IMG/VR virus record: IMGVR_UViG_3300031228_000015
Span: 1-42,312 of that record
Reading direction: 5' to 3' (one strand)
DNA length: 42,312 bases
Source: a virus
Position numbers and translations under genes: made by a program. This document shows positions 3,544 to 35,203 of this stretch, piece after piece (positions within the stretch are counted from its first letter, which is position 1; the number at the start of each line of letters is the position of its first letter). The notes beneath the pieces are model-generated. The model saw nothing but the letters and a program-made list of their open reading frames with translations. It searched no databases and had not been told where the DNA came from.

Positions 3544-4503
3544 ATGGCACAGCACTTTCTCCTCTCCGCCAAGGCTCGCACCCTCTCCCTCAAGGCGGTT
3601 TTCCGCATGGGCGAGGATGCCGCCTATCAGGCTTTCTGTGAGATGCGCTGGCCCGAAACCGAGGGCGAAGCGGTGTGCCCGCGTTGCGGCTGCACCGAGC
3701 ATTACAATCTTTTAACCCGCCGCAAATTCAAGTGCGTAGCCTGTCACCACCAGTTCAGCGTGACGAGTGGAACGATCTTTGCTTCGCGCAAGCTGTCGTT
3801 CACCGATCTGCTGGCGGCGATTGCGATTTTCGTGAACGGGGCGAAGGGGATTTCCGCGCTACAGGCGAGCCGCGATCTGGACGTGCAGTACAAGACCGCT
3901 TTCGTGCTGTTCCATAAGCTGCGCGAGGCGATGGCCCGCGAACTGGCTGACGCCAAGCTCAACGGCACGGTGGAAATCGATGGGGCCTATTTCGGCGGCT
4001 ACGTGAAGCCGGAGAACCGCAAGGAAGATCGCAAGGACCGCCGCCTTGTCGCGAACCGTTCGGGCAAGCGCCAGTGCGTCGTCATCATGCGCGAACGCAA
4101 GGGTCGCTCGCTTCCCTTCGTTGTCGCCAACGAGGGCGATGCCGTTCCCTATGTCCGCGACCACGTTGGCACCCTCGCCACGGTCTGCGCGGACGAAGGC
4201 AGCGGTTGGGATGCGCTCCATGCCGGTTGGGATACGCGCCGGGTCAACCACTCGGTTGCGTTCATGGACGAAGGCGTGTGCACCAATCAGGCGGAGTCGT
4301 ATTTCAGCCGCCTTCGCCGGATGGAAGTCGGAACGCACCACCACATCGCCGGGCCGTATCTCTACAGCTACGCTGGCGAGGCTGCTTGGCGCGAGGATAA
4401 TCGCCGCGTGGACAACGGTTCACAGGCGATGACGCTGACGGCGGCTGCGATGGCAGCGCGGGTTAGCCGGAATTGGAAAGCGTATTGGCAGCGCGCGGTC
4501 TAA
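3544..4503 (+). CDS. IS1595-family DDE transposase
   Basis: 319 aa. N-terminal MAQHFLLSAKARTLSL and zinc-ribbon CPRCGC...CVACHHQFSVTSGTIF are typical of IS1595-family transposases. The DDE-type body contains VEIDGAYFGG...NQAESYFSRLRR. Confidence 0.9.
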   Translation: MAQHFLLSAKARTLSLKAVFRMGEDAAYQAFCEMRWPETEGEAVCPRCGCTEHYNLLTRRKFKCVACHHQFSVTSGTIFASRKLSFTDLLAAIAIFVNGAKGISALQASRDLDVQYKTAFVLFHKLREAMARELADAKLNGTVEIDGAYFGGYVKPENRKEDRKDRRLVANRSGKRQCVVIMRERKGRSLPFVVANEGDAVPYVRDHVGTLATVCADEGSGWDALHAGWDTRRVNHSVAFMDEGVCTNQAESYFSRLRRMEVGTHHHIAGPYLYSYAGEAAWREDNRRVDNGSQAMTLTAAAMAARVSRNWKAYWQRAV

Positions 4504-4566
4504 GTCATTGAAATCGACTCACTCTTAATGCTTGAAATTCTTGAGTTTTTCACTATATCGCATCCC

Positions 4567-5076
4567 ATGGATAGGTCTGTCGCCATCGCAAACGAGTTTC
4601 TCCGGAAACCCGGCGGTGAGTCGCTTACGCAGATGCAGCTCCAAAAGCTGGTCTATATCGCGCATGGATGGAAGCTTGGCTTGTTGGGCCAGCCTCTGAC
4701 GACCGATGAACCGCAGGCGTGGGCCTATGGGCCCGTTTATCCCGACCTTTATGACCATACGAAATTCTTCGGGCGGGGGGCGATAGGCCGGGAAATTACT
4801 CCCGACGATGACGAAGCGGTTCGTTTCTTCACTGACGCTCGCAGGAGAAATGTGCGCCCTTACCGTGCCGAACTCGACGCCAACGAGCGTCAGATTATCG
4901 ATCAGGTTTGGAGGCGCTACGGAAAACTAAGCGGCGCGCGACTGTCCACGTTGACGCACCAACCTAACACACCCTGGTCGGACACTTACGACGGCGCACG
5001 CAATCGCGTGATCCCGCAGGACGAAATCCGAAACCACTACGTCGAACTGGCTGGCCGTGTCCGAGCGGGAGCTTGA
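4567..5076 (+). CDS. Panacea (DUF4065/SocA-like) antitoxin-domain protein with no adjacent co-directional toxin gene
   Basis: Motifs LTQMQLQKLVYIAHGWKLGLLGQPL, AWAYGPVYPDLY and LSTLTHQPNTPW fit the Panacea domain pattern. Start taken at ATG 4567 (MDRSVAIANEFL); an upstream ATG at 4528 is also possible. Confidence 0.75.
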   Translation: MDRSVAIANEFLRKPGGESLTQMQLQKLVYIAHGWKLGLLGQPLTTDEPQAWAYGPVYPDLYDHTKFFGRGAIGREITPDDDEAVRFFTDARRRNVRPYRAELDANERQIIDQVWRRYGKLSGARLSTLTHQPNTPWSDTYDGARNRVIPQDEIRNHYVELAGRVRAGA

Positions 5077-8876: not shown

Positions 8877-10163
8877 TCAGTCAGGTATCGGAATGAGATG
8901 CGGCCGCTGTTCGAATGTGAAGCCCGCAGGCGGCTTGCCTTGTGTCCCGTCGCCGAAGTCCGCGGCCGAACAGTTGAGCAGATTGTCGATACAGTTCCCT
9001 TCCCACCGATCGCGGATCGCCGGTTCCCATGCTTCCATGTAATCGGCGTGGAAGGTCGATCCGGCAGGTTTGCCCGCCATCGCGTCGCTGCTGAATATCC
9101 ACGTCCCCGGTGTGTCGCCGGGCAGGATCGCATAAGCGAAGATCAGTGAAAGCTGAGGGATCAGGTAGGGATGCGAGGCGGGGCAGTGATACCGGCCTGA
9201 ATTCGCATCGCGCGACATATAGGCGAGATGATCCTGGTGGTTCGCGCTGTCGAGATTGCGCCCGTTCCAGCAGTCGGGCGCCTCGATCCGGGCATAGATG
9301 TGGCTGGTCGCGCGGCACCGCTCGGCAACCCCGGCCAGCGTCGGATCGCTGAACCCTGCGTTGCAGTCAAAGCTGACATGCGGCGACTGCAGGTGACCCT
9401 GGACGTAGTTCGTGCCGAAGATCGCCCGCAGTCCCACCGGTATGCCGACGCAGCCCTTGTGCGGCGCACGGGTGCACTCAGGGTCGCTCGCCGGGAGGCG
9501 CTTGTAGTAGTTGGAGATATAGTCCGGCACCACGACTTGACCGCCCGCGGGCTTGCTCAGCAGCGCCGGTAGCCAGTAGGCCGAGCGATTGAGAATATCG
9601 CCCTGGCAGGTACTCCCGCCTGCCGTGCGCAGGCTCGCATAGTCTGACGCCGCGTTCGTCCCGGTGTTGCCGAAGAACATATGCAGGTGCGACTTGCCCG
9701 GCTGCTCCGGGTACGCAATCGGATCGTCATAAGCCAGGTGGCTGACGTTGCAGATGAAGCGGAACGCGCCGACAACATCAGGGGCGGCGGAGCCCGGAAC
9801 CGGCACTTGCCGGACGTAGGACGCCAGGTCGAAGGTGGAGACAATCGGGACGATATCGTCCACCGTCAGCGGTGTGAACTCGGGTATCGGATGTTCGTCG
9901 TGGTCAGGATCGGTGGGCGGTGCAGGATCGAGGATCGCGATGGCTTGTTCCATCAAGTCTACTGTCACGCGGGCTTCGGCCACGCACTTGTCGGCCTGCT
10001 TTCGCTTGCAGTGGTATTCAGCCCGGTCGGCCGCATTCTCCGCGTCCTTGACCGCCGGGTAGGCGGCAGCGGTATCCTGCGCGGCGGCCGGGGTGCATGC
10101 GGCCGGCGCGAAGAGGAAGCAGGCCGCAGCGGCGCCCCACGCAAGATAGTGCCAGTGGATCAC
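8877..10163 (-). CDS. Secreted DUF1996 domain protein
   Basis: Signal peptide MIHWHYLAWGAAAACFLFAPAACTPAAAQ. DUF1996 motifs: GAFRFICNVSHLAYDDPIAYPEQPGKSHLHMFFGN, NRSAYWLPAL, APDCWNGRNLDSANHQDHLAY, HCPASHPYLIPQL, FHADYMEAWE. Confidence 0.8.
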   Translation of the reverse strand: MIHWHYLAWGAAAACFLFAPAACTPAAAQDTAAAYPAVKDAENAADRAEYHCKRKQADKCVAEARVTVDLMEQAIAILDPAPPTDPDHDEHPIPEFTPLTVDDIVPIVSTFDLASYVRQVPVPGSAAPDVVGAFRFICNVSHLAYDDPIAYPEQPGKSHLHMFFGNTGTNAASDYASLRTAGGSTCQGDILNRSAYWLPALLSKPAGGQVVVPDYISNYYKRLPASDPECTRAPHKGCVGIPVGLRAIFGTNYVQGHLQSPHVSFDCNAGFSDPTLAGVAERCRATSHIYARIEAPDCWNGRNLDSANHQDHLAYMSRDANSGRYHCPASHPYLIPQLSLIFAYAILPGDTPGTWIFSSDAMAGKPAGSTFHADYMEAWEPAIRDRWEGNCIDNLLNCSAADFGDGTQGKPPAGFTFEQRPHLIPIPD

Positions 10164-10210: not shown

Positions 10211-11038
10211 TCAGACTCGGCCAAGCACGACAATCGAACCGCCGGTCAGGTTTCCGCCCGTGGTGTTCGCCACTCTCAGCGCATCGATTGTCGATCCCGA
10301 AGCAACGAACAGCCGGGTTTGCTCTGGCCCGTGCGAGATTCCGACCGGCGGCGTCCCGTCGCCCATATTATTGAGAATAGGAACAACCCCCGAACGCGCC
10401 GAGCTGCTGCCATCGCCGAGAGGGAAACCCGATGAATCCGATTCCACGCCGCTCGAATTGATAAGAACATAGTCGCCCGTGGTGGAATAAAAGCTGCTGC
10501 CCCCATCGGTGCTGACCCGCACCATCCTGGTACCCGCGACCGAGGCCGGAATGTTCCGGCAAATGACCATCAGTTCGCTGTAGCCGCCAAGGCCGGTAAA
10601 ATCGACGTTCGCCACGTCACCCGAATGTGTCCAGCTTCCCGCCAGATCCCACCCCACACCGGCTGAAAAAATCGCCCACGCCGATCCGCTCCACACATAG
10701 AGCGCGTCTTCGTCCTGCACCCAAACCTGCAGGCCCTCGTGCCGTGCCCCAATCGGGATGTCCGCCCCATCCGAATCGTTGCCCGGCACGAAGGTCCACG
10801 CCGTGCCGGTGTAGATGGCGATCTTGTTCGCCTTGCCCACCCACGCCCCGGTGGGCGCGGCGCCCACAATGTACACGTCGCCATCCGCAGGGCTCCCCGG
10901 CGGGGTGTCCAGTCCCCGGTCGATCGCGCCTTTCTGCAGCGCGATCAGCATGTTCAGCGCTTCGTTGTGCAGCACCTCCGCCTGCGCCGGCGGGGGCGAA
11001 GGGACATAGGGGATGCCGAGATCGGGGGAATTCGCCAT
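10211..11038 (-). CDS. DUF2793-type tail fibre protein
   Basis: N-terminus PAQAEVLHNEALNMLIALQKGAI...PPGSPADGDVYIVGAAPTGAWVGKANKIAIYTGTAWTF matches the DUF2793 pattern. Lies next to the host-specificity gene. Confidence 0.75.
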   Translation of the reverse strand: MANSPDLGIPYVPSPPPAQAEVLHNEALNMLIALQKGAIDRGLDTPPGSPADGDVYIVGAAPTGAWVGKANKIAIYTGTAWTFVPGNDSDGADIPIGARHEGLQVWVQDEDALYVWSGSAWAIFSAGVGWDLAGSWTHSGDVANVDFTGLGGYSELMVICRNIPASVAGTRMVRVSTDGGSSFYSTTGDYVLINSSGVESDSSGFPLGDGSSSARSGVVPILNNMGDGTPPVGISHGPEQTRLFVASGSTIDALRVANTTGGNLTGGSIVVLGRV

Positions 11039-11278: not shown

Positions 11279-13591
11279 TCACACCACCGCGCGGCGCGGA
11301 TGCCCGCGCCCGCGGATGCCGCTGATCTGGCACGCGTCCACCGTCACCGGATTGCCCGGCGTGATCCCGTCCGCCGTCTGCTCCGCCGCCGAATAGGGGA
11401 AGGTCGGCGCGGTCGTCGCGATCGTGCGCACGGCACTGCCCGCCACGATCACATCCAGCTCGTACCGTTCGCTTTCCTCGGCCAGCGGCGGATCGCCGCC
11501 GAACAGTCCCGCGCCCGCGATCCGGCTGCGCCGGTGGCATGTGATCGTCAGGTTGTTCGATCCGTCGCGCCTGCCGGTCACATGCACCGGTGAAAGGGGT
11601 CGCCGCCCTTCGCCCGTGCCGGTGAAGTCCTGCACGGCGGTATCGGCCTCGCTCGTCAGCACCGAAACCGGCTTGTACTGCCGCTCCGCGTTCCAGTCCC
11701 CCGCGCCGAAGTCGCTGCGCCCCAGCGTCTCCGGTTCCAGCAGCACGAACACTTCGTTCGCGCCATGGGTGCCAATCGCGTGATCGGTGCCCAAGCGCCC
11801 GCGCAGCCGATCGGAAAGCTCGTAGGTCTTCGGGGCCACCAGCGTCGCCGTGGCGAACTGGAACACCTCGCCGCCCTGCCCGTTCGCGGGACCTAGCCAC
11901 GCGGCGTTCGCCCCGTTCAGCACCGCCGATTCGGTCACGCTTTCCAGCTCGTCATCGGCGTTGTCCAGCACCACCGTCACCGGGTTGCCGCGATCCCAAT
12001 AGTCTGCCGGCCCGGAAGGCAGCGCCACGGCCACGTCGCCGATCGGCGCACGCACCGCCACGCCGCTCATCTCCGAATAGGTCGTGCCGCCATCAGACGA
12101 TCGCATGATCGTCGCCCCGCGCCACCCCGCATTGGCCGCCGTCACCGCCCAATAGAAGCCCGAATCGTCATCCGATTCGCGCACGATCGGCATGTCCATC
12201 AGCACCAGGCGCGTGGGGCCGGGCAGCTTCAGCGGGTTCGCCGGCAGCGTGCCCGGCGCGCCCGCCGCGTTGGAACGGTAGGCTTCGGGATCGGCGTTGC
12301 GCGCCTCGATCTCTATCACCCCGTTCGCCCCGCGCGTCGCCCGCGCGATCGCGAACGGCATCACCGTTTCGGCCATCGGCAGGCCCACCACGTCGCCCGC
12401 CTGCAGCCGGTGCCAGCGATCGGAAACCGGGAACCGCGCCAGGCGCCGCGCCGCCCATGCATCCCACAGCAGTGTATCCGCCAGTCTCCGAGCCTCGGTG
12501 GCGTCCAGCACCACCGGCAGTTCGCGCGATACGTTGTTCGACGCCGCGCCCAGCTGGCGCGCTGCACGCTGCGCGTTGACCTGGTAATCCAGCGCCGGGT
12601 CCGCGTATGAAACCGCCGCCTCGCGCGGCATGGCCATGGCCTGCTGCGTTTCGATGCGCATCGGCTCCTGCGCCGGCGCGCCCCCGGCCGCCGCGCCCAT
12701 GTCGTCCGCCGGGATCGTCGCCTTGATCGATCCGCCGCGGCGCACGCACCGCACCTGGCCGCCCTGCTCGGCCAGGTCGAAGTTGTACGCCAGGCCCAGC
12801 GGCTCCAGCGCGCCGAAGCCCGTCACCTCGCGCGCGATCACGAAGCCGCGGCCCGTATCGTTGATCTGCGAAACCGTGATGTCCCCGGTCGCCAGCCCGG
12901 ATCGCGTGGCGATGTCGCGTATCCAGTCGGCCACCAGCGATGAAGGGTGCCCCTCCACCTCGAATTCCAGATTGGGCAGCACATTGCCGAAATCCGCCAG
13001 TTGCAGATCCTTGATCACCACATAGGCGCTGTGGCGGTACGCTGGGGTATTGCCCACCCCTTCCTCGGCCTCGATCGTCGGGTCGATCTGCTGCGTCCCG
13101 TTGCCCTGGTAAAACCGGATCGTATCGAACACCGCGTGCGTGCCGCTGGCGCGCGTCGCCACCATCCCCACCAGCGGCGTCGGCGCGGCGGGGGCAACCG
13201 TCGCTTCGTCCAGGTCGAATATCTTTTTCGAATTCGCCCATATCCGGCGCACCATCGTGCATTCGCCGTCCCCCAGCAGGATCGCCACGCTGGTGGAATA
13301 ACTGTACTCCTTCACCGTGGGGCCGCCCTTGCCGCCCTTCTTCTTGCTGACGTGCTCCACCAGCCCGGTCGACCAGATCAGGTTCCCCGCCAGCCGGTTT
13401 TTCGCGCCATAGATCAGCGGGATCGGTGTGCCGTAAGTGGACGATGTGACCGAAAGATCCTTCAGCCGCGGCCCCTCCACCTTCGGCGCGAACAGCGCCT
13501 GATCGATGAAGCTGCCCACGGTCGAACCGATGAACCCGCCGATCGGGCCGCCAAGCGCGGTGCCCACCGCACCAAGTACCAGCGATGCCAT
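11279..13591 (-). CDS. Host-specificity/baseplate protein (RcGTA g15-like)
   Basis: 770 aa. The Gly-rich N-terminus MASLVLGAVGTALGGPIGGFIG...GPRLKDLSVTSSTYGTPIPLIYG...KKKGGKGG...YSYSTSVAILLGDG is typical of the GTA g15/phage host-specificity family. Confidence 0.85.
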   Translation of the reverse strand: MASLVLGAVGTALGGPIGGFIGSTVGSFIDQALFAPKVEGPRLKDLSVTSSTYGTPIPLIYGAKNRLAGNLIWSTGLVEHVSKKKGGKGGPTVKEYSYSTSVAILLGDGECTMVRRIWANSKKIFDLDEATVAPAAPTPLVGMVATRASGTHAVFDTIRFYQGNGTQQIDPTIEAEEGVGNTPAYRHSAYVVIKDLQLADFGNVLPNLEFEVEGHPSSLVADWIRDIATRSGLATGDITVSQINDTGRGFVIAREVTGFGALEPLGLAYNFDLAEQGGQVRCVRRGGSIKATIPADDMGAAAGGAPAQEPMRIETQQAMAMPREAAVSYADPALDYQVNAQRAARQLGAASNNVSRELPVVLDATEARRLADTLLWDAWAARRLARFPVSDRWHRLQAGDVVGLPMAETVMPFAIARATRGANGVIEIEARNADPEAYRSNAAGAPGTLPANPLKLPGPTRLVLMDMPIVRESDDDSGFYWAVTAANAGWRGATIMRSSDGGTTYSEMSGVAVRAPIGDVAVALPSGPADYWDRGNPVTVVLDNADDELESVTESAVLNGANAAWLGPANGQGGEVFQFATATLVAPKTYELSDRLRGRLGTDHAIGTHGANEVFVLLEPETLGRSDFGAGDWNAERQYKPVSVLTSEADTAVQDFTGTGEGRRPLSPVHVTGRRDGSNNLTITCHRRSRIAGAGLFGGDPPLAEESERYELDVIVAGSAVRTIATTAPTFPYSAAEQTADGITPGNPVTVDACQISGIRGRGHPRRAVV

Positions 13592-13595
13592 CAGA

Positions 13596-14057
13596 TCACC
13601 CCGCCAGCCCCGGATAGCGCCACCAGCTCGTCACCCGCTCTTGCCATTCGGCGGTAAAGCCGTGCTCCACCACCCGGCCGAAGTCGCTCAGCGCATGGAT
13701 CATCGTCCACCGGCCGCGCGCGTCCTGCGCCAGGATCGCCAGGTGCATCGGCAACTCGCGGCGCCATTCCATCCACACCACATCGCCCGGCTCCGCCGCA
13801 ATCTCGCCGCCCGCCAGCGGCAACAGGAACATCTCCAGCGCCTGGCGCATCCGTTTCGGGTGCGGTTGCCGCCCGTAATTGCCCACCGCCGCCCATGCCG
13901 CCGGGGCAATGTCGAGCACGCCGGCCGCGTGCCCCGCGCCGCGAACGAGCCCGGCGCAATCGCACCCCGCGCCCTTCGCCGCCGCCTGATGGCGGAACCG
14001 CGTGCCGATCCATGTTCGCGCCTCGGCGATCAGGCGCGCCCGCGCGGCCTCGCTCAT
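13596..14057 (-). CDS. NlpC/P60 family peptidase (RcGTA g14-like)
   Basis: ARTWIGTRFRHQ...GCDCAGLV contains the catalytic Cys motif. Size and position follow DUF2163. Confidence 0.8.
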   Translation of the reverse strand: MSEAARARLIAEARTWIGTRFRHQAAAKGAGCDCAGLVRGAGHAAGVLDIAPAAWAAVGNYGRQPHPKRMRQALEMFLLPLAGGEIAAEPGDVVWMEWRRELPMHLAILAQDARGRWTMIHALSDFGRVVEHGFTAEWQERVTSWWRYPGLAG

Positions 14058-15055
14058 CCCTGCTTTGCATCCGGCGCCTGGCTTGCCGAATCCCGGCCCG
14101 GCACCTTGTCATATCCCCCGAAGTGCTCGTACCAGTTGAACTTCGTCTTGCATGTCGTCTCCAGCAGGTCGCACCCCGGCACCGCCGAATAGGTATCGCC
14201 CGGCTCGATCGGATACAGCATCGGTTGCCACAAGGTGAACTGGCCGGTCGCCTGCACGTAATCCTTCACCTCGCCCTCCGCCCCGGCGTTCGCCCCGGTC
14301 AGCCAGGTCACGATGCCGCGATCGAACCACCCGTCCGCCTCGCTCCGCCCGCTGTCCGCGAAGATGCGCCGGTCGGCCGTGGTCGAGGCCGAAAGCGGCG
14401 CCACGCCGGTTACCGTGCCGGTTACCGTCACCGGGCCAAGATCGAAGCCGCACCGCGCATCGCCCAGCTCGAACCGGCACGATGGCGTCACCACCTGCAC
14501 CACCGCCGCCTGTTGCAGCAGCCCTCCGGGCGTCAGCACTTCCATGGTATAGCCGCGCCGCCCCTGGCTCAGCTTGCCGGTCACCCCCGTCATCAATCGC
14601 CATGGCGTCTCGCCGCTCGTGCTCCACGGCACCATCCACACCTCCACCCGCGCGCCGTCGAACAGCCCCCCGATCAGGTCGCGGTCGGCTATCGAATCGT
14701 CGCTCACTATCCCGCTGATCTCGGCATTGCCGATCTGCCCCAGCACCGCCCCCATCTCCGCCGCGGAGGCGGAAAGGCTTTCGCACGGCGAATAGGTATC
14801 GCCGCCGAACACGATCGGCATGTCGGCCGATGTGAAGGCGAACACCTCGCCATCGCGCCGCTCGATGCGCCAGCATTGCGCCCAATGCGTCAGGCACGGC
14901 GCGGTATCCACCAGCGCCAGCACCGGCGCCTGCGTCACCCGCGCTGGCGATGCTTCCATCACCAGCGCCAGCACCGGCGCCTGCGTCACCCGCGCATCCG
15001 CCTCGCCGGCTGTCAGCGCCAGCACCAGCGCCTGCGTCGTGCGGATATTGGTCAT
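14054..15055 (-). CDS. DUF2163 tail hub protein (RcGTA g13-like) with a repeat-containing N-terminal extension
   Basis: The core starts at PCLTHWAQCWRIERRDGEVFAFTSAD...GDTYSP. C-terminal CDLLETTCKTKFNWYEHFGG is BR0599-like. Three 16-17-aa repeats (ARVTQAPVLALV...) precede the core. Confidence 0.85.
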   Translation of the reverse strand: MTNIRTTQALVLALTAGEADARVTQAPVLALVMEASPARVTQAPVLALVDTAPCLTHWAQCWRIERRDGEVFAFTSADMPIVFGGDTYSPCESLSASAAEMGAVLGQIGNAEISGIVSDDSIADRDLIGGLFDGARVEVWMVPWSTSGETPWRLMTGVTGKLSQGRRGYTMEVLTPGGLLQQAAVVQVVTPSCRFELGDARCGFDLGPVTVTGTVTGVAPLSASTTADRRIFADSGRSEADGWFDRGIVTWLTGANAGAEGEVKDYVQATGQFTLWQPMLYPIEPGDTYSAVPGCDLLETTCKTKFNWYEHFGGYDKVPGRDSASQAPDAKQG

Positions 15056-16124
15056 TGCCGCATCCTAAACGTCAGGCCGTTTTCTCAAGCCGCAGCAACG
15101 CCGCGTTCGCCGCCGCGGGGGTCCATGGCGCGCCGGTCGCCGGGTCCGTCTCGAACACATCGTCCCAATAGGTATAAGCTTCGGTGATCGGCCGATCGGC
15201 CCCCGCCGCCACGCTCGCGCCTGAAACCAGCGACGCGCGCAGGTTCGCCGCGCCGGCGTCCTCCTTGCGGCTCATCGGCGCGGCGTAAAGCGCGGTCACC
15301 ACCGAAACTTCCGCCGGAAGGCCGGTCAACCCGAATTCCGAAATGTCGCCCACCGTCGCGGCGGCTATATAGGTCGTGTCACCATCCGGCGCGGCCTGGT
15401 CGATTGTTGAAAAATCGGTGCTGCCCGTGTTGCGCGTCCAGTCGGATTCAGCCGTGTCGGCATCGGGCAGCCGCGTATAAACTCGCTGCGGACCTATGAA
15501 ATCGTTGACCAGGCTGCCCGCGGTATCCCACGCAAACACGTCATCCCAATATGTCAGCGGAATGGCATTTTCGCTGCCGAACGCGACCTGGTCGATCAGC
15601 GACGTGGCCGAATTGCGCGTGTCGACGCCTGAAATGTCCAGCACCGTCACCCCGTTCACCCGCACTTCCACAGCCCCGCCGGAATCGGCGCACAATGCCT
15701 TGATCTCGTAATGGTGCCACGCCTGCGCGGTGATCACCGGGTCGCTCGTGCCCAGCACTGCGCCGCTCACATTGCCGCGCAGCACCACCACCTGCCCAGT
15801 GGTCGACAGCTTGACGCAAATCTGCGCCGCATTCCCCGAATCGCGAAACTCGGCCAGCACCACCCCGTTTGACGTGCTCGGCAGAGAACTCAGATAAATG
15901 CCCGCGCCGAAACCCACCGTGGCCCGCGTCGCGCCAGGAAACACCCGCCGCGCCTGCGTGCTGGAGTTGCCGCTGTGACTCAGCGAATTGCTCCCCGTGC
16001 GCGCCTGCGTGGCCGAAGGCGTCAGGTTGGTGCTGAGCGCGGCCCACACCCCGGCCAGCATGTTCGTCCGCCCGGTTGCCCCGGTCCCGTAATGATCGAA
16101 CCCGTCGCACCACAGCAGCGCCAT
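14627..16124. repeat. Copy 2 of a diverged tandem duplication (5' half of the DUF2163 gene plus paralog A2)
   Basis: Protein-level colinearity with 16159..17719. Homology ends at the shared ...EVWMVP codons. Confidence 0.75.
15072..16124 (-). CDS. Tail-module protein, paralog A2 (putative receptor-binding/fibre-like protein)
   Basis: 350 aa. Shares MALLWCDGFDHYGTG..., VEVRVNGVTV.DISGVDTRNS, DFIGPQR, AAGADRPITE.YTYW.DVF and APWT.AA.NAALLRLEKTA with 16643..17719. Confidence 0.7.
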   Translation of the reverse strand: MALLWCDGFDHYGTGATGRTNMLAGVWAALSTNLTPSATQARTGSNSLSHSGNSSTQARRVFPGATRATVGFGAGIYLSSLPSTSNGVVLAEFRDSGNAAQICVKLSTTGQVVVLRGNVSGAVLGTSDPVITAQAWHHYEIKALCADSGGAVEVRVNGVTVLDISGVDTRNSATSLIDQVAFGSENAIPLTYWDDVFAWDTAGSLVNDFIGPQRVYTRLPDADTAESDWTRNTGSTDFSTIDQAAPDGDTTYIAAATVGDISEFGLTGLPAEVSVVTALYAAPMSRKEDAGAANLRASLVSGASVAAGADRPITEAYTYWDDVFETDPATGAPWTPAAANAALLRLEKTA

Positions 16125-16140
16125 CTATCGCATCCTGCCT

Positions 16141-16638
16141 TCAACCGCCCCAACCATCGGGCACCATCCACACCTCGATCCGCGCACCGTCGAACAGGCC
16201 GGCCAACAGATCGTCCTCGGATATCGAATCGTCGCTGATCACGCCCACGATCTCGCCGTTGCCCACTTGCCCCAGCACCGCACCCGTTTCGATCGCTCCG
16301 GCCGAAAGCCCCTCGCACGGGGAATAGGTTTCCCCGCGGAACACCACCGGTTCGTCCGCCGTGGTGAAGGCGAACACCTCGCCGTCGCGCCGCTCGATCC
16401 GCCAGCACTGCGCCCAACGCGTCAGGCACGGCGTCCCGGCGCACAGCACGATCACCGCCGCCTGCGTCGCACGTACGCCGGCCGCGCCGTCGATCAGCGC
16501 CATCACCCCGGCCTGTGTGGCGCGCACGGCGGCGGCCTCCGGCGCCAGCACCAGCACCGCCGCCTGCGATGCCCGCGCCGCCGCCTCGCCGCCAACCAGC
16601 GCATAGACCGCCGCCTGCGTGACGCGGGCCTCGGCCAT
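16141..16638 (-). CDS. Truncated DUF2163 N-terminal paralog (165 aa, intact ORF)
   Basis: Four repeats of the (V/A)R(A/V)TQA.V..L type, then TPCLTRWAQCWRIERRDGEVFAFTTAD...FDGARIEVWMVP, ending DGWGG-stop. It aligns with residues 1-143 of 14054..15055. Confidence 0.6.
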   Translation of the reverse strand: MAEARVTQAAVYALVGGEAAARASQAAVLVLAPEAAAVRATQAGVMALIDGAAGVRATQAAVIVLCAGTPCLTRWAQCWRIERRDGEVFAFTTADEPVVFRGETYSPCEGLSAGAIETGAVLGQVGNGEIVGVISDDSISEDDLLAGLFDGARIEVWMVPDGWGG

Positions 16639-17719
16639 CGGTCTAGGCCGTCTTCTCTAGCCGCAGCAACGCCGCGTTCACCGCCGCCGCCGTCCACGGG
16701 GCGCCGGTATCAGGGTCGATCGGGAACACGTCCGCCCAATAGGTATAGACCTCGGTGATCGGCCGGTCGGCGCCCGCCGCCACCGCCGCGTTGCTGATCA
16801 TGGACACCTGCACATTGGCCGTGCCGGCAGTGAGCTTCCGCAGCATCGGCGTCACGTAAAGCGCCGTCACCGCCGAAATTTCCGGCGGCAGATCCTCCAG
16901 CGCGAATTCGGAAATATCCCCCGGCGTCGACTGCGCCTCGATATAGCTCGTGTCGCCGTCCGGCGGTACTTCGTCTATTTGCGTGTACCCCGTCACCCCG
17001 CTATCCGGCACCCAATCGTCCGCCGCGGTGTCGGCGTCGGGGACCAGCAGGTAGGCCCGCTGCGGGCCGATGAAATCGTTGATCTCGCTGCCACTGGTAT
17101 CCCAAGCGAACATATCATCGAACCGCGGGATCACGTTGGAGAGGTTTGTCCCGGTGCTGATGTTGCCGAAAGCAACTTGCGTCATCAGGCCGGCGGCGGA
17201 ATTGCGTGTGTCAACACCGCTGATATCAATAACCGTAACGCCGTTGACACGAACCTCCACCGCGCCGGCGGTATCGTCACAAGTGGCTCTGCATTCGAAA
17301 TGCTGATAGGAACCTGCCGTCACGACAGGTGCGCTGATAGCCAACAAAGTGCCGGTGGCGCCGCCTCGCTTGACTTCTATTTCGCCTGCGGTTGTCAGAA
17401 CGAACGAAAGTTGCGCCGTGTTCCCGCCATCCCTGAATTGCGCCAGCCCAAAAACATTGCTGACCGCCGGAAGCTGCGCCATATACAGCCCGTAACCGAA
17501 ACCGACAGTCGCAAGATTAGCCGTCGGAAAAACCCGCCTGGCAACCGCGAGATTATTCAAGATTGTACCGGTCGACAGGCACGCCGTGCCGGTGCGGGGG
17601 GTGGTCGCCGAAGGGGTGATGCCTGAATTGATTTCAGCCCAAACGCCCTGAAGCATGTTCGTCCGGCCCGTCGAACCGGTCCCGTAATGATCGAACCCGT
17701 CGCACCACAACAACGCCAT
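16159..17719. repeat. Copy 1 of the diverged tandem duplication (truncated DUF2163 fragment plus paralog A1)
   Basis: See 14627..16124. Confidence 0.75.
16643..17719 (-). CDS. Tail-module protein, paralog A1 (putative receptor-binding/fibre-like protein)
   Basis: 358 aa. N- and C-termini are nearly identical to A2 while the central part diverges. Confidence 0.7.
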   Translation of the reverse strand: MALLWCDGFDHYGTGSTGRTNMLQGVWAEINSGITPSATTPRTGTACLSTGTILNNLAVARRVFPTANLATVGFGYGLYMAQLPAVSNVFGLAQFRDGGNTAQLSFVLTTAGEIEVKRGGATGTLLAISAPVVTAGSYQHFECRATCDDTAGAVEVRVNGVTVIDISGVDTRNSAAGLMTQVAFGNISTGTNLSNVIPRFDDMFAWDTSGSEINDFIGPQRAYLLVPDADTAADDWVPDSGVTGYTQIDEVPPDGDTSYIEAQSTPGDISEFALEDLPPEISAVTALYVTPMLRKLTAGTANVQVSMISNAAVAAGADRPITEVYTYWADVFPIDPDTGAPWTAAAVNAALLRLEKTA

Positions 17720-17720
17720 A

Positions 17721-18389
17721 TCAACAGCTCCGCACCCCGATCAGCGCCAGGTCGGCAAAGCCGGCCGCGTTGAACGCACGCACCATCGCCGCAAAGCTGT
17801 CGTCCGCCTCGAACCGTACTTCCACGTCGAACAGGAACCCGGCGCGCACCACCTGCCCCGGCGCGGGCGCGGTTGTGAACGTCACCACCCCGCCGGGGCG
17901 GCTCACCGTCCACGGGTTCGATCCCGAAACGTCCGCCCCGTTCACCGAAACGCGCACGCTGGAAACCACCGGCAGCGTGATCGGCCGCGAATAGCTGGTC
18001 GCGCCATAGCGGTCATATGCCTTCACCAGCGAAAACTGCGTCTTCGCCCCATCCCCGGTGCCGATCACCTGGTCCAGCATCCCGATCGCGGGCGTGCTCT
18101 GCATCGGCACCATCAGCAGGTCCACGCTCGCGAAGTCGAACGGATCGCGAAACGGCCAAGTCTGCGCCGGGCCACCCATGACCAGCCAGTGCTTTTTCAG
18201 CGCCTCCACCACCTGCCAGTGCCGCACAGCCTCCGGCAGGTTGTACCGCCATAGCGGGTGCTGCCAGTTGCGGTTCGCCTGCTCCGCGCCCGAATCCACC
18301 GTCACGATCGTGGTCGAAAAGCGCGGCTCCGAATTGCACGGGTAGCCCGGCACTTCCGCCGGCATGTAAACGTCGACAAAGCGGGTCAT
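17721..18389 (-). CDS. DUF2460 distal tail protein (RcGTA g12-like)
   Basis: FVDVYMPAEV...PRFSTTIVTVDSGAEQANRNW...WPFRDPFDF matches the DUF2460/TIGR02217 pattern. Confidence 0.8.
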   Translation of the reverse strand: MTRFVDVYMPAEVPGYPCNSEPRFSTTIVTVDSGAEQANRNWQHPLWRYNLPEAVRHWQVVEALKKHWLVMGGPAQTWPFRDPFDFASVDLLMVPMQSTPAIGMLDQVIGTGDGAKTQFSLVKAYDRYGATSYSRPITLPVVSSVRVSVNGADVSGSNPWTVSRPGGVVTFTTAPAPGQVVRAGFLFDVEVRFEADDSFAAMVRAFNAAGFADLALIGVRSC

Positions 18390-32458: not shown

Positions 32459-35203
32459 CTATCCATAATCGCCATATCCCGCCGGATAGTCGCGCCGCTC
32501 GTCAGGGTCGGCCGGAACGTCCTTCAACCGCACGTCCAGGTATTTGCGAATGCGCCCGATCTCGCGCTTGAAGCCCTTCTGCACCATGATCCCGGCAAAG
32601 CCCTTTTCGGTGTAGGGCTTCACCGAATTGGCGTGGCACCACGCGGTATAGGCGCGGTGCATGTCGCGCGCGGTCACGAACGCGCCGGACATCGGCTCGA
32701 TGCAGGCCAGCGCGAATTCGCCCACCGGGTCCATGTCCGCGCGATAGCTTTCGGTGGCCGCGTCGATCTCGCGCGGCACCTGCAACCCGTTGTGCAGGTA
32801 ATCCAGCAGGCCCTCGATCAGCCAGTTCAGGATGCCCGGCCCCTCGCTCGCGAATTCGGCCAGCACCTTTTCCATCGGCCGCCGCTGGTTCGCCGGGATG
32901 GTCACTTCCCACGGCACCAGCTTCATGCGCCGCCATATGCCTTCGTCCACGCCGCCGATCGCCGGGCGGTCGTTGCCCGATCCCACGGCCTTGAACGCCG
33001 GCGAGAATTCGAAGAACGACTCGTGCAGGTGCCGCACCAGCATGGCCTCGCCGCCGGTCAGCATCTTAAGCGTCGATTCGCGAAATCCCTGCCCGCGCGG
33101 CAGCTCGGCACACACCAACATGCGCGCGCCCGTCAGGCGGGCGAATTCGGGCGTCGCCTGGTCGCCGCGGCGGTGCTGATCGCCCGTCAGCGATTCAGCC
33201 GACAGCACCTTGGCATATCCGCCCTGCAGGCGCCGCAGCGCCTCCATGAAGGTCGATTTGCCGTTGGCGCCCAGGCCATAGTTGAACACGAAGATCTGCT
33301 CGCCGGTCATCCCGGTCAGCGCATAGCCGTGATAACGTTGCAGGAACCGGCGGATAGCCTCGCCGGGCTGGAAACGCTCGACAAAAGTGCGCCACTTCGG
33401 CGCCTTGGCCACCGGGTCGTATTCCACCGGCATCACTTTCGCTATCCGGTCCTCCCGCGCGTGTGCGTCTAGGCGCACCTTCCACACGGCGCGGTCAACC
33501 TCGAAAGGCGGGTCTTCGGGGTCATCCCCGCCAACCCTCTCCCGCACCGTCTCACGCACCACGCGCAAGGTGCCGTTTTGCAGGTTGATCGACATCGCAT
33601 CGGCGTCGATCGCGTCGGGCGCCACGGTGATGTGCGGTGCGGCCTGGGCGATCATGCCGTTAATGCGCTGGGTGTTTCCGCACGATATGGCGAACTTGCG
33701 GCGGTCGGCCTTGCGCTTGGCCAGCCTCGCCGCCGCTTCCTGCCCGTCCTTCAGCAGCTTGCGCTCGCCTTCGTCCAGATCCTCGTATTCGCGGCCCTCC
33801 AGCTTCTTCGCCGCATCGGCCAGGATCTTGTCGGCCTTGCTGTGGTGCAGGCAATCGGCCTCCAGCGCGATCCGCTCGGCCGTGCGCTGGGCGAAGCGCT
33901 GGAACGCCTCCGCGCCGCCCGCGCCCTCCCAATGGGTTCCGGCCCACCAATGCGGGCCGACATCGCGCACGCGCAGCATGTCCGCCCCGAAATGGGCGAT
34001 CAGGCGGCGTGCGTTGCCGGTATCGTTTTGCGGTTCGCGCCCGCAGGCCTCGATCGCGCCGGCATCGGGTTCGTCTCCGGCATCCGCGCCTCCGATGCCG
34101 CCCGGCGGCTTCCCCGCACCCCCACCATGGGATGGTGTTCGCGCGCTTCGTGCATCCGCGTGCTTCCCCCTCATGGGGGCTTCGGGGCGGGCAGGCTCGC
34201 CGGGGGGCAGGTCGCTGGGGATGTGTGCGGGCAGCGGCGCGCGCTCGCTACGCTTGCGCCCGGCCAGCAGCCCCACTTGCGAAAGGTCGGCCGGTTCGCG
34301 CTTGCCCGCGCGCATGCCCGAACGGATCGTGCCGGCGGACTTGCGGAAATCGGGCCACGAGCGCGCCACTTCCTCCAGCGCGCCCACCGCCTCGGCCTCA
34401 TCCAGCGCACCCGCACCCACCAGGTGGCCCAGCGCCAGCGCCGCCCGGTTCAGCGTGTCGTTGCGCGTGCCCGCCGCCGCCTCGGCCGCGCGGGCCGTCT
34501 CGGCGGCAAGGGCGGCGGCGGCATAGGCGCGGATCGCCTCCTCGCGCGCCGCGTCGACACCGCCGGGCGCGATCGATCCCGTGGGTCTCGGCGGTGGGGG
34601 CGGCGGATCGGGCCGCGCGGTGACGAAGGCGATCAGCGCGGGCGGCGCGGGCACCGGCACATCCTCGCCACCCTCCGCCCAGCGATAGGCCACGCCCTCG
34701 CACCCCTCGGCCTCGGCCTTCAACCCGCTGCGCACCGATGGCGGCACGATCACGTATCCGCCGGTTCCCCGCACATCCACGCCGCGGATCACGCCCGCGC
34801 GGTTGCGGATCGCCTCGGCGCCCGTCATCGGCAGCGCGAACCACAGGTGCAGGCCCCCGCGCGGCGTTTCGGCGGTGATCGTCGGCGGCAGCTCGCACCC
34901 CGCCTCGCGCGCCACCCGCTCCAGCACCTCGGCCGCGCTGGCGCCGTCCTTCGGGTCGATATCCACCACGAAGGCGTCCACGCGCGTGCCGGTCGGCACG
35001 CCGATCATCGCGTCGGGCCACCGGTCCCACCACCGGCGGATCTGCGCCTTGTCGCAGGTCGCGTGATACAGCCCGCCGGGCACGGGCTCGCCGCGCTCAT
35101 CCTTGTCCGCCGGCGGCGTCAGCGGCCGCTTGTCGTTCGGCGAACAAGGGAACACCGGCCATCCCGATTCGGCATAGGCCAGTGCGTGATCCAGCATTTG
35201 CAC
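32459..35203 (-). CDS. Bifunctional primase-polymerase / D5_N / P4-type SF3 helicase replication protein
   Basis: 914 aa. Prim-Pol N-terminus (GWPVFPC...VVDIDPKDG...GGLHLWF...GGYVIVPPS). C-terminal Walker A GLGANGKST and P4-family primase C-terminal region. Confidence 0.9.
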   Translation of the reverse strand: MQMLDHALAYAESGWPVFPCSPNDKRPLTPPADKDERGEPVPGGLYHATCDKAQIRRWWDRWPDAMIGVPTGTRVDAFVVDIDPKDGASAAEVLERVAREAGCELPPTITAETPRGGLHLWFALPMTGAEAIRNRAGVIRGVDVRGTGGYVIVPPSVRSGLKAEAEGCEGVAYRWAEGGEDVPVPAPPALIAFVTARPDPPPPPPRPTGSIAPGGVDAAREEAIRAYAAAALAAETARAAEAAAGTRNDTLNRAALALGHLVGAGALDEAEAVGALEEVARSWPDFRKSAGTIRSGMRAGKREPADLSQVGLLAGRKRSERAPLPAHIPSDLPPGEPARPEAPMRGKHADARSARTPSHGGGAGKPPGGIGGADAGDEPDAGAIEACGREPQNDTGNARRLIAHFGADMLRVRDVGPHWWAGTHWEGAGGAEAFQRFAQRTAERIALEADCLHHSKADKILADAAKKLEGREYEDLDEGERKLLKDGQEAAARLAKRKADRRKFAISCGNTQRINGMIAQAAPHITVAPDAIDADAMSINLQNGTLRVVRETVRERVGGDDPEDPPFEVDRAVWKVRLDAHAREDRIAKVMPVEYDPVAKAPKWRTFVERFQPGEAIRRFLQRYHGYALTGMTGEQIFVFNYGLGANGKSTFMEALRRLQGGYAKVLSAESLTGDQHRRGDQATPEFARLTGARMLVCAELPRGQGFRESTLKMLTGGEAMLVRHLHESFFEFSPAFKAVGSGNDRPAIGGVDEGIWRRMKLVPWEVTIPANQRRPMEKVLAEFASEGPGILNWLIEGLLDYLHNGLQVPREIDAATESYRADMDPVGEFALACIEPMSGAFVTARDMHRAYTAWCHANSVKPYTEKGFAGIMVQKGFKREIGRIRKYLDVRLKDVPADPDERRDYPAGYGDYG

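Follow-up and report, generated by a model that had tools for sequence, protein, structure and literature searches.

The closest described counterparts of the baseplate hub considered here are g13 of RcGTA (PDB 6TBA/6TEH), the R4C hub (8GTC) and lambda gpL. In RcGTA and R4C, the hub's attachment domain docks on the distal tail protein (Dit), whose six docking positions are all occupied, three each by hub and megatron domains (PMC7296036, PMC10276861), leaving no obvious free site where an additional hub-derived protein could bind. Also comparable are tandem cassettes of receptor-binding proteins or adhesins, and 'evolved' Dit and Tal proteins with inserted CBMs or LamG domains. We analysed a 42,312-nucleotide stretch of viral DNA (IMG/VR record IMGVR_UViG_3300031228_000015; hereafter, the window), in which a tail-tip duplication takes in a lectin-like gene, A, along with the beginning of the hub gene. 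The half hub left over from this duplication, here called hubN, is a gene kept by selection, judging from related phages.

On the minus strand, the window carries TMP, g12, A1, hubN, A2, the full hub, the NlpC/P60 gene and g15, in that order (Table 1). The ORFs and order that the initial annotation gave between g12 and the NlpC/P60 gene are correct, and DNA and protein alignments bear out its repeat unit of A plus the 5' half of the hub gene, with DNA repeats 1532-1595 nt apart (73-80% identity) and homology that stops at the EVWMVP codons (16159/14627). The g12 product matches PF09343 (E 5e-49) and scores 133.4 bits against TIGR02217 ('phage distal tail protein, Rcc01695 family'), slightly below the cut-off of 136.65. 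Tail PHROGs are matched by g14, whose position is kept in ~70 related loci, and g15 matches PF13550 (E 1.4e-30), PF23666 (Rcc01698_C; E 1.1e-27) and phrog_4271 (E 6e-196). No promoter-like or terminator-like sites were found inside the duplicated block. The hubN start codon lies 4 nt downstream of the A1 stop and has no Shine-Dalgarno motif of its own; its tight coupling to the A stop is seen in four lineages, and the N-terminal Met context M-x-x-A-R-x-T-Q is conserved. In most relatives, the spacer between g12 and A is similar in length to the junction spacer of the window and also holds a Shine-Dalgarno motif. The DNA is 66-69% GC, and long open frames arise easily in it.

Table 1. Positions of the duplicated block and its neighbours in the window
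Feature	Position	Strand	Remarks
g12, distal tail protein (Dit), DUF2460 / TIGR02217	17721..18389	-	upstream edge of duplicated block
A1, 358 aa, upstream copy	16643..17719	-	phrog_2448 member, ConA-like jelly roll and C-terminal beta domain
hubN, 165 aa, stand-alone truncated baseplate hub paralogue	16141..16638	-	repeats and first ~2/3 of attachment domain
Four 17-aa RxTQxxxLxL repeats forming the hubN N-terminus	16435..16635	-	51-nt direct repeats in DNA
Spacer, 16 nt, hubN stop to A2 start (duplication junction)	16125..16140	-	AGGA Shine-Dalgarno motif inside
A2, 350 aa, downstream copy, paralogous to A1	15072..16124	-	homology to A1
Full-length baseplate hub, 333 aa, lambda gpL / RcGTA g13 type	14054..15055	-	PF09931 and PF09356
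g14, NlpC/P60-like peptidase, lambda gpK-like position	13596..14057	-	downstream edge of block; PF00877 weak, E 1e-3
g15, central tail-tip protein ('megatron'/gpJ-like), 770 aa	11279..13591	-	PF13550 and PF23666
DUF2793 protein, 275 aa, separate fibre-like candidate downstream of g15	10211..11038	-	PF10983 E 4e-20

The hub of the window is a full member of the RcGTA, R4C and lambda group, which it resembles in its attachment domain, its four-Cys BR0599 part and its position between Dit and NlpC/P60. It matches PF09931 over profile positions 13-160 of 160 (E 6.5e-38), the extent of a full-length attachment domain, and PF09356 (E 5.6e-21), the C-terminal BR0599 part, where four cysteines (in CRFELGDARC and PGCDLLETTC) align to RcGTA g13 and mark a predicted Fe-S site. 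Matches to TIGR02218 (E 7.8e-49; 166.7 bits, cut-off 80.5) and to the hubs of 6tba (E 8e-35) and 8gtc (E 1.8e-30) agree with this assignment. Unlike GTA-type hubs, both the hub and hubN carry N-terminal 17-aa RxTQ repeats; the hub has three (~14903-15052) within its hubN-homologous stretch (14627-15055). In relatives, the hub N-terminus is, to judge from sequence, a display platform: it bears Laminin_G_3 domains in loci L016 and L001, is extended by 200-800 aa in most of the best 150 representatives, and is fused in frame to an A-like C-terminus in L025. Such relatives, which bear Laminin_G_3/ConA-like domains through the RxTQ repeats, recall the 'evolved' Dit and Tal proteins, whereas the window has its ConA-like modules as separate proteins and bare repeats at both hub-type N-termini.

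hubN shares homology with the opening ~2/3 of the RcGTA and R4C hubs' attachment domain, the part that docks on Dit, and lacks the last ~40 attachment-domain residues present in these hubs and in gpL. It corresponds, as originally proposed, to hub residues 1-143 (62% identical, E 3e-66), the single gap in the alignment being one whole 17-aa repeat. Its RxTQ motifs stand at R5, R22, R39 and R56 (spacing 17), the last of them 14 aa before the domain start. Only positions 13-98 of 160 in PF09931 are matched, an incomplete attachment domain, along with positions 1-80 of 266 in TIGR02218 (61.2 bits, cut-off 80.5). Homology ends at ~residue 103 of the 142-residue RcGTA attachment domain, and the ORF stops 5 codons later (...EVWMVP-DGWGG, then stop); ion-binding, oligosaccharide-binding and clip domains are absent. 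Because it is cut inside the attachment domain, hubN is not a clean domain. Its AF2 model is partly confident (pLDDT 65), with the repeats below 50.

A1 and A2 share 61% identity from end to end (E 2e-148), are reciprocal best hits in a search among 5.8 billion proteins, and are sisters in the tree (bootstrap 98). They had been described as nearly identical at both termini and diverged in the centre; this trend exists, but dN in successive 60-codon windows (0.34, 0.47, 0.34, 0.26, 0.34, 0.20) forms a gradient and no sharp pattern, and conserved N- and C-termini are family-wide (63 homologues) and not peculiar to this pair. A jelly-roll or LamG fold had been guessed, and AF2 and Foldseek agree on it. 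The A1 model (pLDDT 93.9, pTM 0.90) consists of a ConA-like jelly roll (~residues 1-215) and a small C-terminal beta domain, and the beta-sandwich jelly roll places A1 and A2 in the concanavalin A-like (LamG-like) superfamily by fold; at the sequence level, neither matches a Pfam or NCBIfam family such as Laminin_G_3. At E<=1e-3, Foldseek gives 415 PDB matches, with jelly-roll lyases, legume and ERGIC lectins, CBM66 and sialidase lectin domains at the top. The best matches of A1, which include PL36 Aly36B, PL7 lyases, ConA-like lectins and CBM66, reach E 3e-8 to 1e-5 and TM 0.5-0.6 normalised to the target, but A has an extra C-terminal beta domain, and profile comparison of A1/A2 with Aly36B falls short of significance (E 0.28 across 75 residues).

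Among PHROGs, A1 matches only phrog_2448, which has no assigned function (E 8.5e-36). The A1 fold is nevertheless widespread and often multi-copy in phages, with TM 0.8-0.9 to many phage proteins. A structural analogue in AchV4 (TM 0.80) is annotated 'virion structural protein', and LC-MS/MS detected the AchV4 tail-module proteins that bear this name, a result for the module that is not tied to the analogue gene itself (PMC7996906). The A homologue gp315 of phiCbK is not flagged as virion-associated. Fold and position suggest that A is a receptor-binding protein. Two or three adjacent A paralogues occur in many phages (L067, L079, L080, L112-115 and Mesorhizobium phage Cp1R7A-A1), and structural analogues come in several copies in Serratia JS26 and Roseovarius phage 1, as in tandem receptor-binding cassettes; the window differs in that its unit includes part of a core baseplate gene, retained as a gene of its own.

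hubN is found beyond this contig and is common to the clade of the window's closest relatives, which is a new observation; keyword searches of a limited set of papers found no free-standing truncated hub paralogue. Orthologues (P0122, P0124-P0127) occur in five other lineages, and P0126, from L026/27, is present on 10 contigs, 7 of which are 20-50 kb long. The hubN-bearing loci are nearest to the window, with g12 64-70% identical versus <=58% in all others, and the four closest relatives by g12 have the order g12-A-hubN-A-hub. This order occurs in L026/27, L029/30 and L032, and A-hubN in L031 and L033-36. What is conserved is the upstream A with hubN, followed by A-hub, by A, two ORFs and hub, by g14, or by an uncharacterised ORF; L031 reads A-hubN-g14-g15, without a full hub. 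Comparison with single-copy relatives, which the initial annotation had recommended, sets this clade apart from ~110 other related hub-bearing loci that have one full hub and no hubN. An hmmsearch of 1.84 billion representatives revealed no further true short hub form among the 150 best matches. The six short hub forms all end 0-5 residues after VWMVPW, so their end point is conserved.

The claim that the truncated ORF is maintained and is not debris holds up in these orthologues, which share its end point, and in the dN/dS comparison that had been proposed for the copies. Over the domain part, orthologous hubN pairs show dN/dS of 0.12-0.18 (dN 0.17-0.21, dS 1.1-1.5), compared with 0.25 for the hub N-domain, and orthologous hubN is as constrained as the real hub domain; hubN is under purifying selection at the protein level. 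Between hubN and the hub of the window, dN/dS is 0.33 over the domain part and ~1 over the repeats, which reach 0.37-0.42 between orthologues. Relative to 19 outgroup hubs, the window's hubN has 6 derived amino-acid changes versus 8 in the full hub and keeps 22 of 24 family-conserved sites, a pattern that excludes neutral decay (binomial p between 1e-4 and 1e-2). Of the features expected of a pseudogene, frameshifts, premature stops, excess changes and a lack of orthologues are all missing, and only the dN/dS of ~1 in the window's repeats is present. Because orthologue dN/dS is so low and every indel is in frame, hubN is a selected gene and not debris. True debris within the family includes an out-of-frame A(1-64)/hub(242-330) remnant in L025, decayed GTA-like genes in L037 and a frameshifted hub, P0267.

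We put slightly better than even odds on the block being an inherited locus of two cassettes that encode accessory tail-tip proteins of a lambda/RcGTA-type siphophage. Each cassette consists of a jelly-roll A followed by a hub-type N-terminus (17-aa RxTQ repeats and the start of the attachment domain), which is part of the real hub in the second cassette and free-standing, as hubN, in the first. The duplication would have arisen once, by unequal or illegitimate recombination, and A1/A2 and hubN/hub would later have been partly homogenised by gene conversion in the window's lineage. A1 and A2 would be virion tail-tip proteins that bind, or possibly cleave, host surface polysaccharide, and having two diverged copies would broaden or alter the range of surfaces to which the phage can adhere. 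Made together with A1, hubN would place, assemble or stabilise the extra accessory protein at the Dit-hub junction, through its attachment-domain part and/or its repeats. This adaptor or anchor role is the weakest step, and a doubtful one: phages often have A-A arrays but no hubN, which means that an adaptor is not a general requirement, and since A is also present in 55 loci without hub-type N-terminal RxTQ repeats, A in general needs no hub-type partner. It is also rather doubtful that hubN is a structural component that makes an extra tail-tip docking platform, either by forming a hetero-oligomer with the hub or by attaching laterally to Dit or hub. If it is, one phage could mount two different ConA-like adhesins, the portable host-range unit in this group would be an adhesin with its own hub-derived anchor, and L031 would imply that the short form can replace the hub in docking on Dit.

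Pairs of fibre and chaperone genes are a common phage pattern, and hubN might by this precedent be an assembly factor absent from mature particles, acting either as the upstream A protein's chaperone or as a short-lived cap or competitor at Dit that times hub incorporation. The upstream A and hubN are conserved whatever comes next, a truncated domain with low-confidence repeats would suit a transient binder, and the RcGTA and R4C baseplates have no free Dit site. However, hubN has no homology to any known chaperone, and it is dispensed with where A is single-copy or forms A-A arrays, and we regard this role as unlikely.

It is quite improbable that hubN matters as DNA, serving as a homology arm, an extra copy of the hub's most conserved segment, for the exchange, stacking or loss of A cassettes among related phages while repeated gene conversion from the hub preserves its coding appearance. 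The break does fall where the hub N-domain is most conserved, at FDGA.VEVWMVPW. Moreover, the downstream A is swapped between L026 and L029 (41% identity) whereas the upstream A and hubN are orthologous, and L025 holds another stacked, decayed A-hub cassette. The window also shows signs of gene conversion: dS varies unevenly over the unit, from 2.3-2.6 in the central part of A to 0.57 at its C-terminus and 0.47 in hubN/hub, and three-way site patterns switch along the hubN/hub domain in a mosaic (Fisher p 0.014), so the copies look partly homogenised. This, and an arrangement common to the closest relatives, contradicts a duplication private to this phage and diverging in place. On the other hand, the L026, L029 and L032 fragments group together and not with their own hubs (L026 and L029 as a pair in the tree), with roughly star-like three-way patterns, which argues against recent overwriting there. 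dN in hubN is low despite dS above 1, and the conserved Met context and A-stop coupling suggest translation.

Recurrent independent duplications of A + hub(1-143), in the window and in L026/L029/L032, with VWMVPW as a hot spot or the sole tolerated truncation, are very unlikely. Distance trees do pair the window's copies with each other (hubN and hub are sisters, bootstrap 87, and each other's closest relatives), and dS between its hubN and hub is 0.51 in this comparison, versus 0.84-1.04 to the L033 hubN. Yet the end point falls within 0-5 residues in six lineages that form one clade by g12, and the uneven dS of the window's unit is unexpected from one clean duplication. In addition, near the breakpoint and at column 45 the window's hubN has states that are specific to fragments and that it has in common with foreign ones; at column 45, Gly is found in 4 of 6 fragments and 5 of 158 background hubs, and Ser in the paired hubs. 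Taken alone, the pairing of A1 with A2 and of hubN with hub would fit a separate, younger duplication.

A private, recent tandem duplication, with A2 (or A1) as the novelty under selection and the 165-aa ORF as debris left at the junction and not yet decayed, is extremely improbable: the sister pairs and reciprocal best hits, the ease with which frames stay open at this GC content, the dN/dS of the repeats and the missing Shine-Dalgarno motif would fit it, but it is largely refuted because hubN orthologues with the same end residue exist in five other lineages, the window's closest relatives, and it is further opposed by their low dN/dS at dS >1, by the lack of excess derived changes or frameshifting indels in the window's hubN, and by the different look of true debris in L025, L037 and P0267.

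Mesorhizobium phage Cp1R7A-A1 has two A paralogues and, just upstream of them, a gene for a 'putative tail fiber protein' that its annotation likens to DUF2793 proteins.

The tail-tip module of this virus contains a tandem duplication in which a gene for a lectin-like protein (A) and the beginning of the adjoining gene for the baseplate hub (333 aa) are repeated, giving the paralogues A1 and A2 and a truncated hub paralogue, hubN, between them. A1 and A2 are 61% identical over their full length, and hubN aligns to hub residues 1-143 at 62% identity, with one whole 17-amino-acid repeat as the sole gap. The DNA copies of the unit are spaced 1532-1595 nt apart with 73-80% identity, and all indels within their coding parts are multiples of three. 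Past the EVWMVP codons, where homology stops, hubN has five more codons (DGWGG) and then TGA, followed by a 16-nt spacer with an AGGA motif before the A2 start. The initial annotation had described this layout (A1, a 165-aa ORF, A2 and the full hub, with the break at EVWMVP), and alignment of proteins and DNA confirms it. When the last hubN codons, stop and spacer were compared with the 3' end of g12 and with the g12-A spacers of relatives to trace how the junction arose, both spacer styles occurred among relatives, and a 20-nt similarity was too weak to point to a source. The longest perfect A1/A2 identity in the unit is 34 nt, in codons 3-14 (LLWCDGFDHYGT), and may be a small conversion tract or may reflect constraint on the translation-start region.

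Coordinates of features in the window and in two related loci
Feature	Sequence	Position	Strand	Description
g12	window	17721-18389	-	distal tail protein (Dit); DUF2460 / TIGR02217
A1	window	16643-17719	-	358 aa
34-nt identity	window	17676-17709 (A1), 16081-16114 (A2)		
hubN	window	16141-16638	-	165-aa ORF
A2	window	15072-16124	-	350 aa
hub	window	14054-15055	-	PF09931 + PF09356; TIGR02218; PDB 6TBA hub, E 8e-35
17-aa repeats	window	14903-15052 (hub), 16435-16635 (hubN)		also in related loci L004, L007, L008, L014, L016, L021, L024 and others
End of homology	window	16159 / 14627		EVWMVP codons
g14	window	13596-14057	-	NlpC/P60-like
g15	window	11279-13591	-	central tail-tip protein; Phage-tail_3 + Rcc01698_C
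DUF1996 gene	window	8877-10163	-	428 aa, E 1.5e-35
Transposase	window	3544-4503	+	IS1595 family; DDE_Tnp_IS1595, E 6e-37
SocA/Panacea gene	window	4528-5076	+	antitoxin domain
GC peak	window	34001-35000		75.7% GC
Primase-helicase	window	32459-35203		Prim-Pol/D5
Short-form locus	L031	846-1400 and flanks		A-hubN (184 aa)-g14-g15
A-hub fusion	L025	42-2486		fusion of 646+ aa, then a decayed second cassette

From sequence comparisons we conclude that hubN is a protein-coding gene under purifying selection. Within the window, Nei-Gojobori estimates of dN/dS are 0.25 for A1 versus A2 (dS 1.28 overall) and, for hubN versus hub, 0.33 in the 91-codon domain part (dS 0.51) and 0.97 in the repeat part (dS 0.40). 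When differences between the two are polarised with 19 outgroup hubs, 6 derived changes fall in hubN and 8 in hub, whereas 75-87% of changes would be expected on the hubN branch if hubN were neutral and hub constrained, a model that makes the split seen here improbable (p between 1e-4 and 1e-2). Of the 24 positions with at least 90% conservation across the family, hubN retains 22. Among orthologous hubN genes from three related loci (L026, L029 and L032), dN/dS in the domain part is 0.12-0.18 (dS 1.1-1.5, dN 0.17-0.21), compared with 0.25 for the hub N-domain between L026 and L029 (dS 0.73, dN 0.18); the repeat part gives 0.37-0.42 (dS 1.1-1.2, dN 0.40-0.50). The earlier proposal that the truncated ORF is maintained is thus well supported by the orthologues, and in its domain part both comparisons lie below the ratio near 1 of neutral decay.

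Conversion from a selected hub could mimic constraint on hubN. However, among L026, L029 and L032 the fragments remain grouped with one another and three-way site patterns are close to star-like, so the low hubN dN is not explicable by gene conversion. Neighbour-joining places the fragments of L026 and L029 and both hubs in one clade (bootstrap 90), within which the fragments group together (bootstrap 71), apart from their own hubs, indicating that hubN predates the L026/L029 split and was retained in both. Real debris looks unlike hubN: the related locus L025 carries a decayed second cassette behind a fused A-hub gene, in which A(1-64) is joined out of frame to hub(242-330), protein P0267 is a frameshifted hub, and L037 is a decayed GTA-like cluster. 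The last, on a bacterial chromosome (ENA ERZ25039523 contig_21369, 421 kb), is a GTA-like or prophage cluster in decay: its DUF2460 and hub genes are truncated to 88 and 137 aa, and a trypsin-like gene has been inserted on the other strand. It provides a useful picture of real decay in the hub family.

With hubN as query, further short PF09931 proteins of 149-184 aa were found in related loci. The order is g12-A-hubN-A-hub-g14-g15 in L026/L027, apparently near-complete at about 42.3 kb, where 10 contigs encode protein P0126, seven of them 20-50 kb long and one measuring 42,310 bp; g12-A-hubN-A-hub in L029/L030, where the hub has an N-terminal extension of ~400 aa; g12-A-hubN-A, two ORFs and then hub in L032; and A-hubN in L033-L036. 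L031 (sample SRR21707651) has A-hubN directly followed by g14 and g15. The constant unit is the upstream A plus hubN, irrespective of downstream genes. All six short forms terminate 0-5 residues past the VWMVPW motif, with the C-termini VWMVPWA, VWMVPWVPLN, VWMVPWTPQA, VWMVPWQDEP, VWMVPWK and, in the window, VWMVP-DG-W-GG. In L031, from which a full-length hub is absent, the g14 ATG falls inside the Pro-Trp codons of this motif (CCATGG); the locus is either a defective deletion variant or from a phage for which the short form suffices.

None of the loci retrieved by searching with A (22 viral, 79 metagenome and 21 genome loci) contains hubN, and where they have a hub it is one full-length copy. 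The g12 identity to that of the window is 64-70% in fragment-bearing loci and at most 58% in every other locus; by this independent marker, the fragment-bearing loci are exactly the closest relatives of the window. An exhaustive profile search of 1.84 billion representatives gave 141 matches at E <= 1e-30, and the best 150 matches are nearly all full hubs, the few of intermediate length running past VWMVPW or being frameshifted. The short PF09931 proteins P0130-P0142 were rejected as hubN counterparts: they are GTA-type hubs without repeats, cut at varied positions by contig ends or decay. A literature search on DUF2163/DUF2460 fragments found nothing relevant. That hubN is a real gene was revealed solely by comparison with related genomes, and annotators should be aware that a "fragment" adjoining its full-length parent can be a real gene.

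In trees, A1/A2 (bootstrap 98) and hubN/hub (bootstrap 87) of the window are sister pairs, and A1 and A2 are reciprocal best matches among 5.8 billion proteins. Taken alone, these observations would suggest a younger duplication in the window. The common end point, clade distribution, uneven dS and a mosaic of sites point instead to an old duplication with partial homogenisation. Within the window unit, dS is 2.3-2.6 in mid-A, 0.57 in the last 60 codons of A and 0.47 for hubN/hub. Over the first two thirds of the domain, hubN and hub of the window agree with each other at informative sites, but in the last third hubN matches the foreign fragment of L033 at 14 sites and hub at only 4 (Fisher p 0.014 for the switch along the domain). 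Column 45 is Gly in four of six fragments, including that of the window, whereas the three paired hubs all have Ser there and just 5 of 158 background hubs have Gly. A single origin of the duplication seems the more likely history, though not a proven one.

Protein A belongs to phrog_2448 and has no Pfam or NCBIfam matches. An AlphaFold model built from 63 homologues (pLDDT 93.9, pTM 0.90) is nearly all beta, and its N-terminal two thirds match concanavalin-A-like jelly rolls, such as the PL36 alginate lyase Aly36B (E 3e-8), a sialidase lectin domain, Cip1, legume and ERGIC lectins and CBM66; a LamG/jelly-roll fold, guessed initially, is thus borne out. A may bind or cleave sugar; its link to polysaccharide lyases consists of fold likeness and a weak PL36 profile match that is non-significant by sequence (E 0.28). 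The whole two-domain fold recurs in many phage proteins (TM 0.8-0.9), often several per genome. One, in Achromobacter phage AchV4, is annotated as a virion structural protein, and tail-module proteins so named in this phage were detected by LC-MS/MS (PMC7996906). Homologues of A are found in tail modules. In 'Tetraselmis viridis virus S20', the closest annotated phage, one A gene lies between Dit and hub, Mesorhizobium phage Cp1R7A-A1 has two copies adjoining putative tail fibres, in Sphingomonas phage Lucius the homologue is the N-terminal part of a 'putative tail fiber', and in phiCbK it is the last gene of the tail module. It is common for A genes to stand in tandem, up to three in a row, with no hubN; in distant phages such arrays occur at loci L067/L070, L079, L046/L048, L080/L096, L112-L115 and L002. 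The downstream A slot is only 41% identical between the close relatives L026 and L029.

Both hub and hubN start with one to five copies of a 17-aa repeat (RxTQ repeat; consensus (P/D)-A-R-x-T-Q-A-A-V-L-V-L), the final copy lying almost always exactly 14 residues ahead of the attachment domain. The repeat is absent from GTA-type hubs, corresponds to no Pfam family, and is not confidently modelled by AF2. In relatives it joins the hub to N-terminal Laminin_G_3/ConA-like domains (L001; L016, with two copies, E 8e-44), and most of the best 150 representatives have extensions of 200-800 aa ahead of the repeats. Extended hubs are found in L008, L014, L021, L001, L016 and L029 and in representatives P0145-P0290. 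In L025 an A-like C-terminal domain is fused in frame to a full hub via a single RxTQ repeat. The hub N-terminus thus seems to serve in general for the display of lectin-like domains. Such extensions and fusions mark the stretch from Dit to the hub core as a hypervariable locus for lectin-like modules, of which the arrangement in the window is one variant. Docking of A on the repeats was also considered and has no co-occurrence support: repeats are present in 68 of 80 hub loci and in only 2 of 57 A loci without a hub match, and so track the hub lineage.

The lambda/GTA-type hub is treated as an invariant core part, present in three copies per tail. hubN holds the repeats and roughly the first 100 residues of the attachment domain, and nothing else of the hub. 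In its partly confident model, pLDDT is about 90 for the beta core and below 50 for the repeats, and the best PDB matches are hub proteins, weakly recovered by Foldseek (E 9e-3). In solved systems the distal tail protein docks mainly on the attachment domain (residues 1-142 in RcGTA, 1-141 in R4C), and the hub Fe-S domain is reported to be essential for tail assembly (PMC7296036, PMC10276861). In four lineages the start of hubN shows tight coupling to the stop of the A gene ahead of it, and no promoter-like or terminator-like site by which hubN or A2 would be transcribed separately was found within the block. The best reading, which we infer, is that hubN would be co-expressed with A1 and might help to place or assemble the extra accessory protein at the Dit-hub junction. 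Such a role for the fragment is plausible, although it is weakened by A-A arrays lacking hubN, by the 55 loci with A but without repeats, and by solved baseplates, which have no free Dit sites. Alternatively, hubN might act in assembly without being part of the virion, or might serve at the DNA level as a homology arm through which cassettes are exchanged. Fusion of hubN with the preceding A or with A2, by read-through or frameshifting, was rejected: frame relations (0 or +1) and spacers (1-60 nt) differ between lineages, and there is thus no conserved recoding signal.

Accessory adhesin cassettes in siphophage tail tips are a known kind of system, and the window holds a variant of it; unusually, a core baseplate protein here has a truncated paralogue that is itself a conserved gene. 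A selected hub paralogue beside a duplicated lectin-like gene suggests that tail tips can be extended modularly with part of a core protein, in which case the arrangement would offer a defined adhesin and anchor cassette for the study or engineering of host range in alphaproteobacterial siphophages and GTA-like particles.

The window, a whole metagenome contig of 42.3 kb, looks like a complete siphophage genome, with no nucleotide-level relatives among GenBank phages. Its minus strand carries the lambda/RcGTA-type tail-tip module and genes for terminase, portal, ClpP-type protease, HK97-type capsid, tail tube and tape measure. A DUF2793 fibre-like gene lies 3' of g15, with the DUF1996 gene directly 3' of it at the end of the tail module; a DNA methylase and a primase-helicase are encoded elsewhere. 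The transposase gene and the adjoining SocA/Panacea gene are on the strand opposite to the phage genes, in a contig end of lower GC content (57-60% versus ~66%), and this segment looks like an insertion into the phage genome. The GC peak lies within the primase-helicase gene, far above the contig mean.
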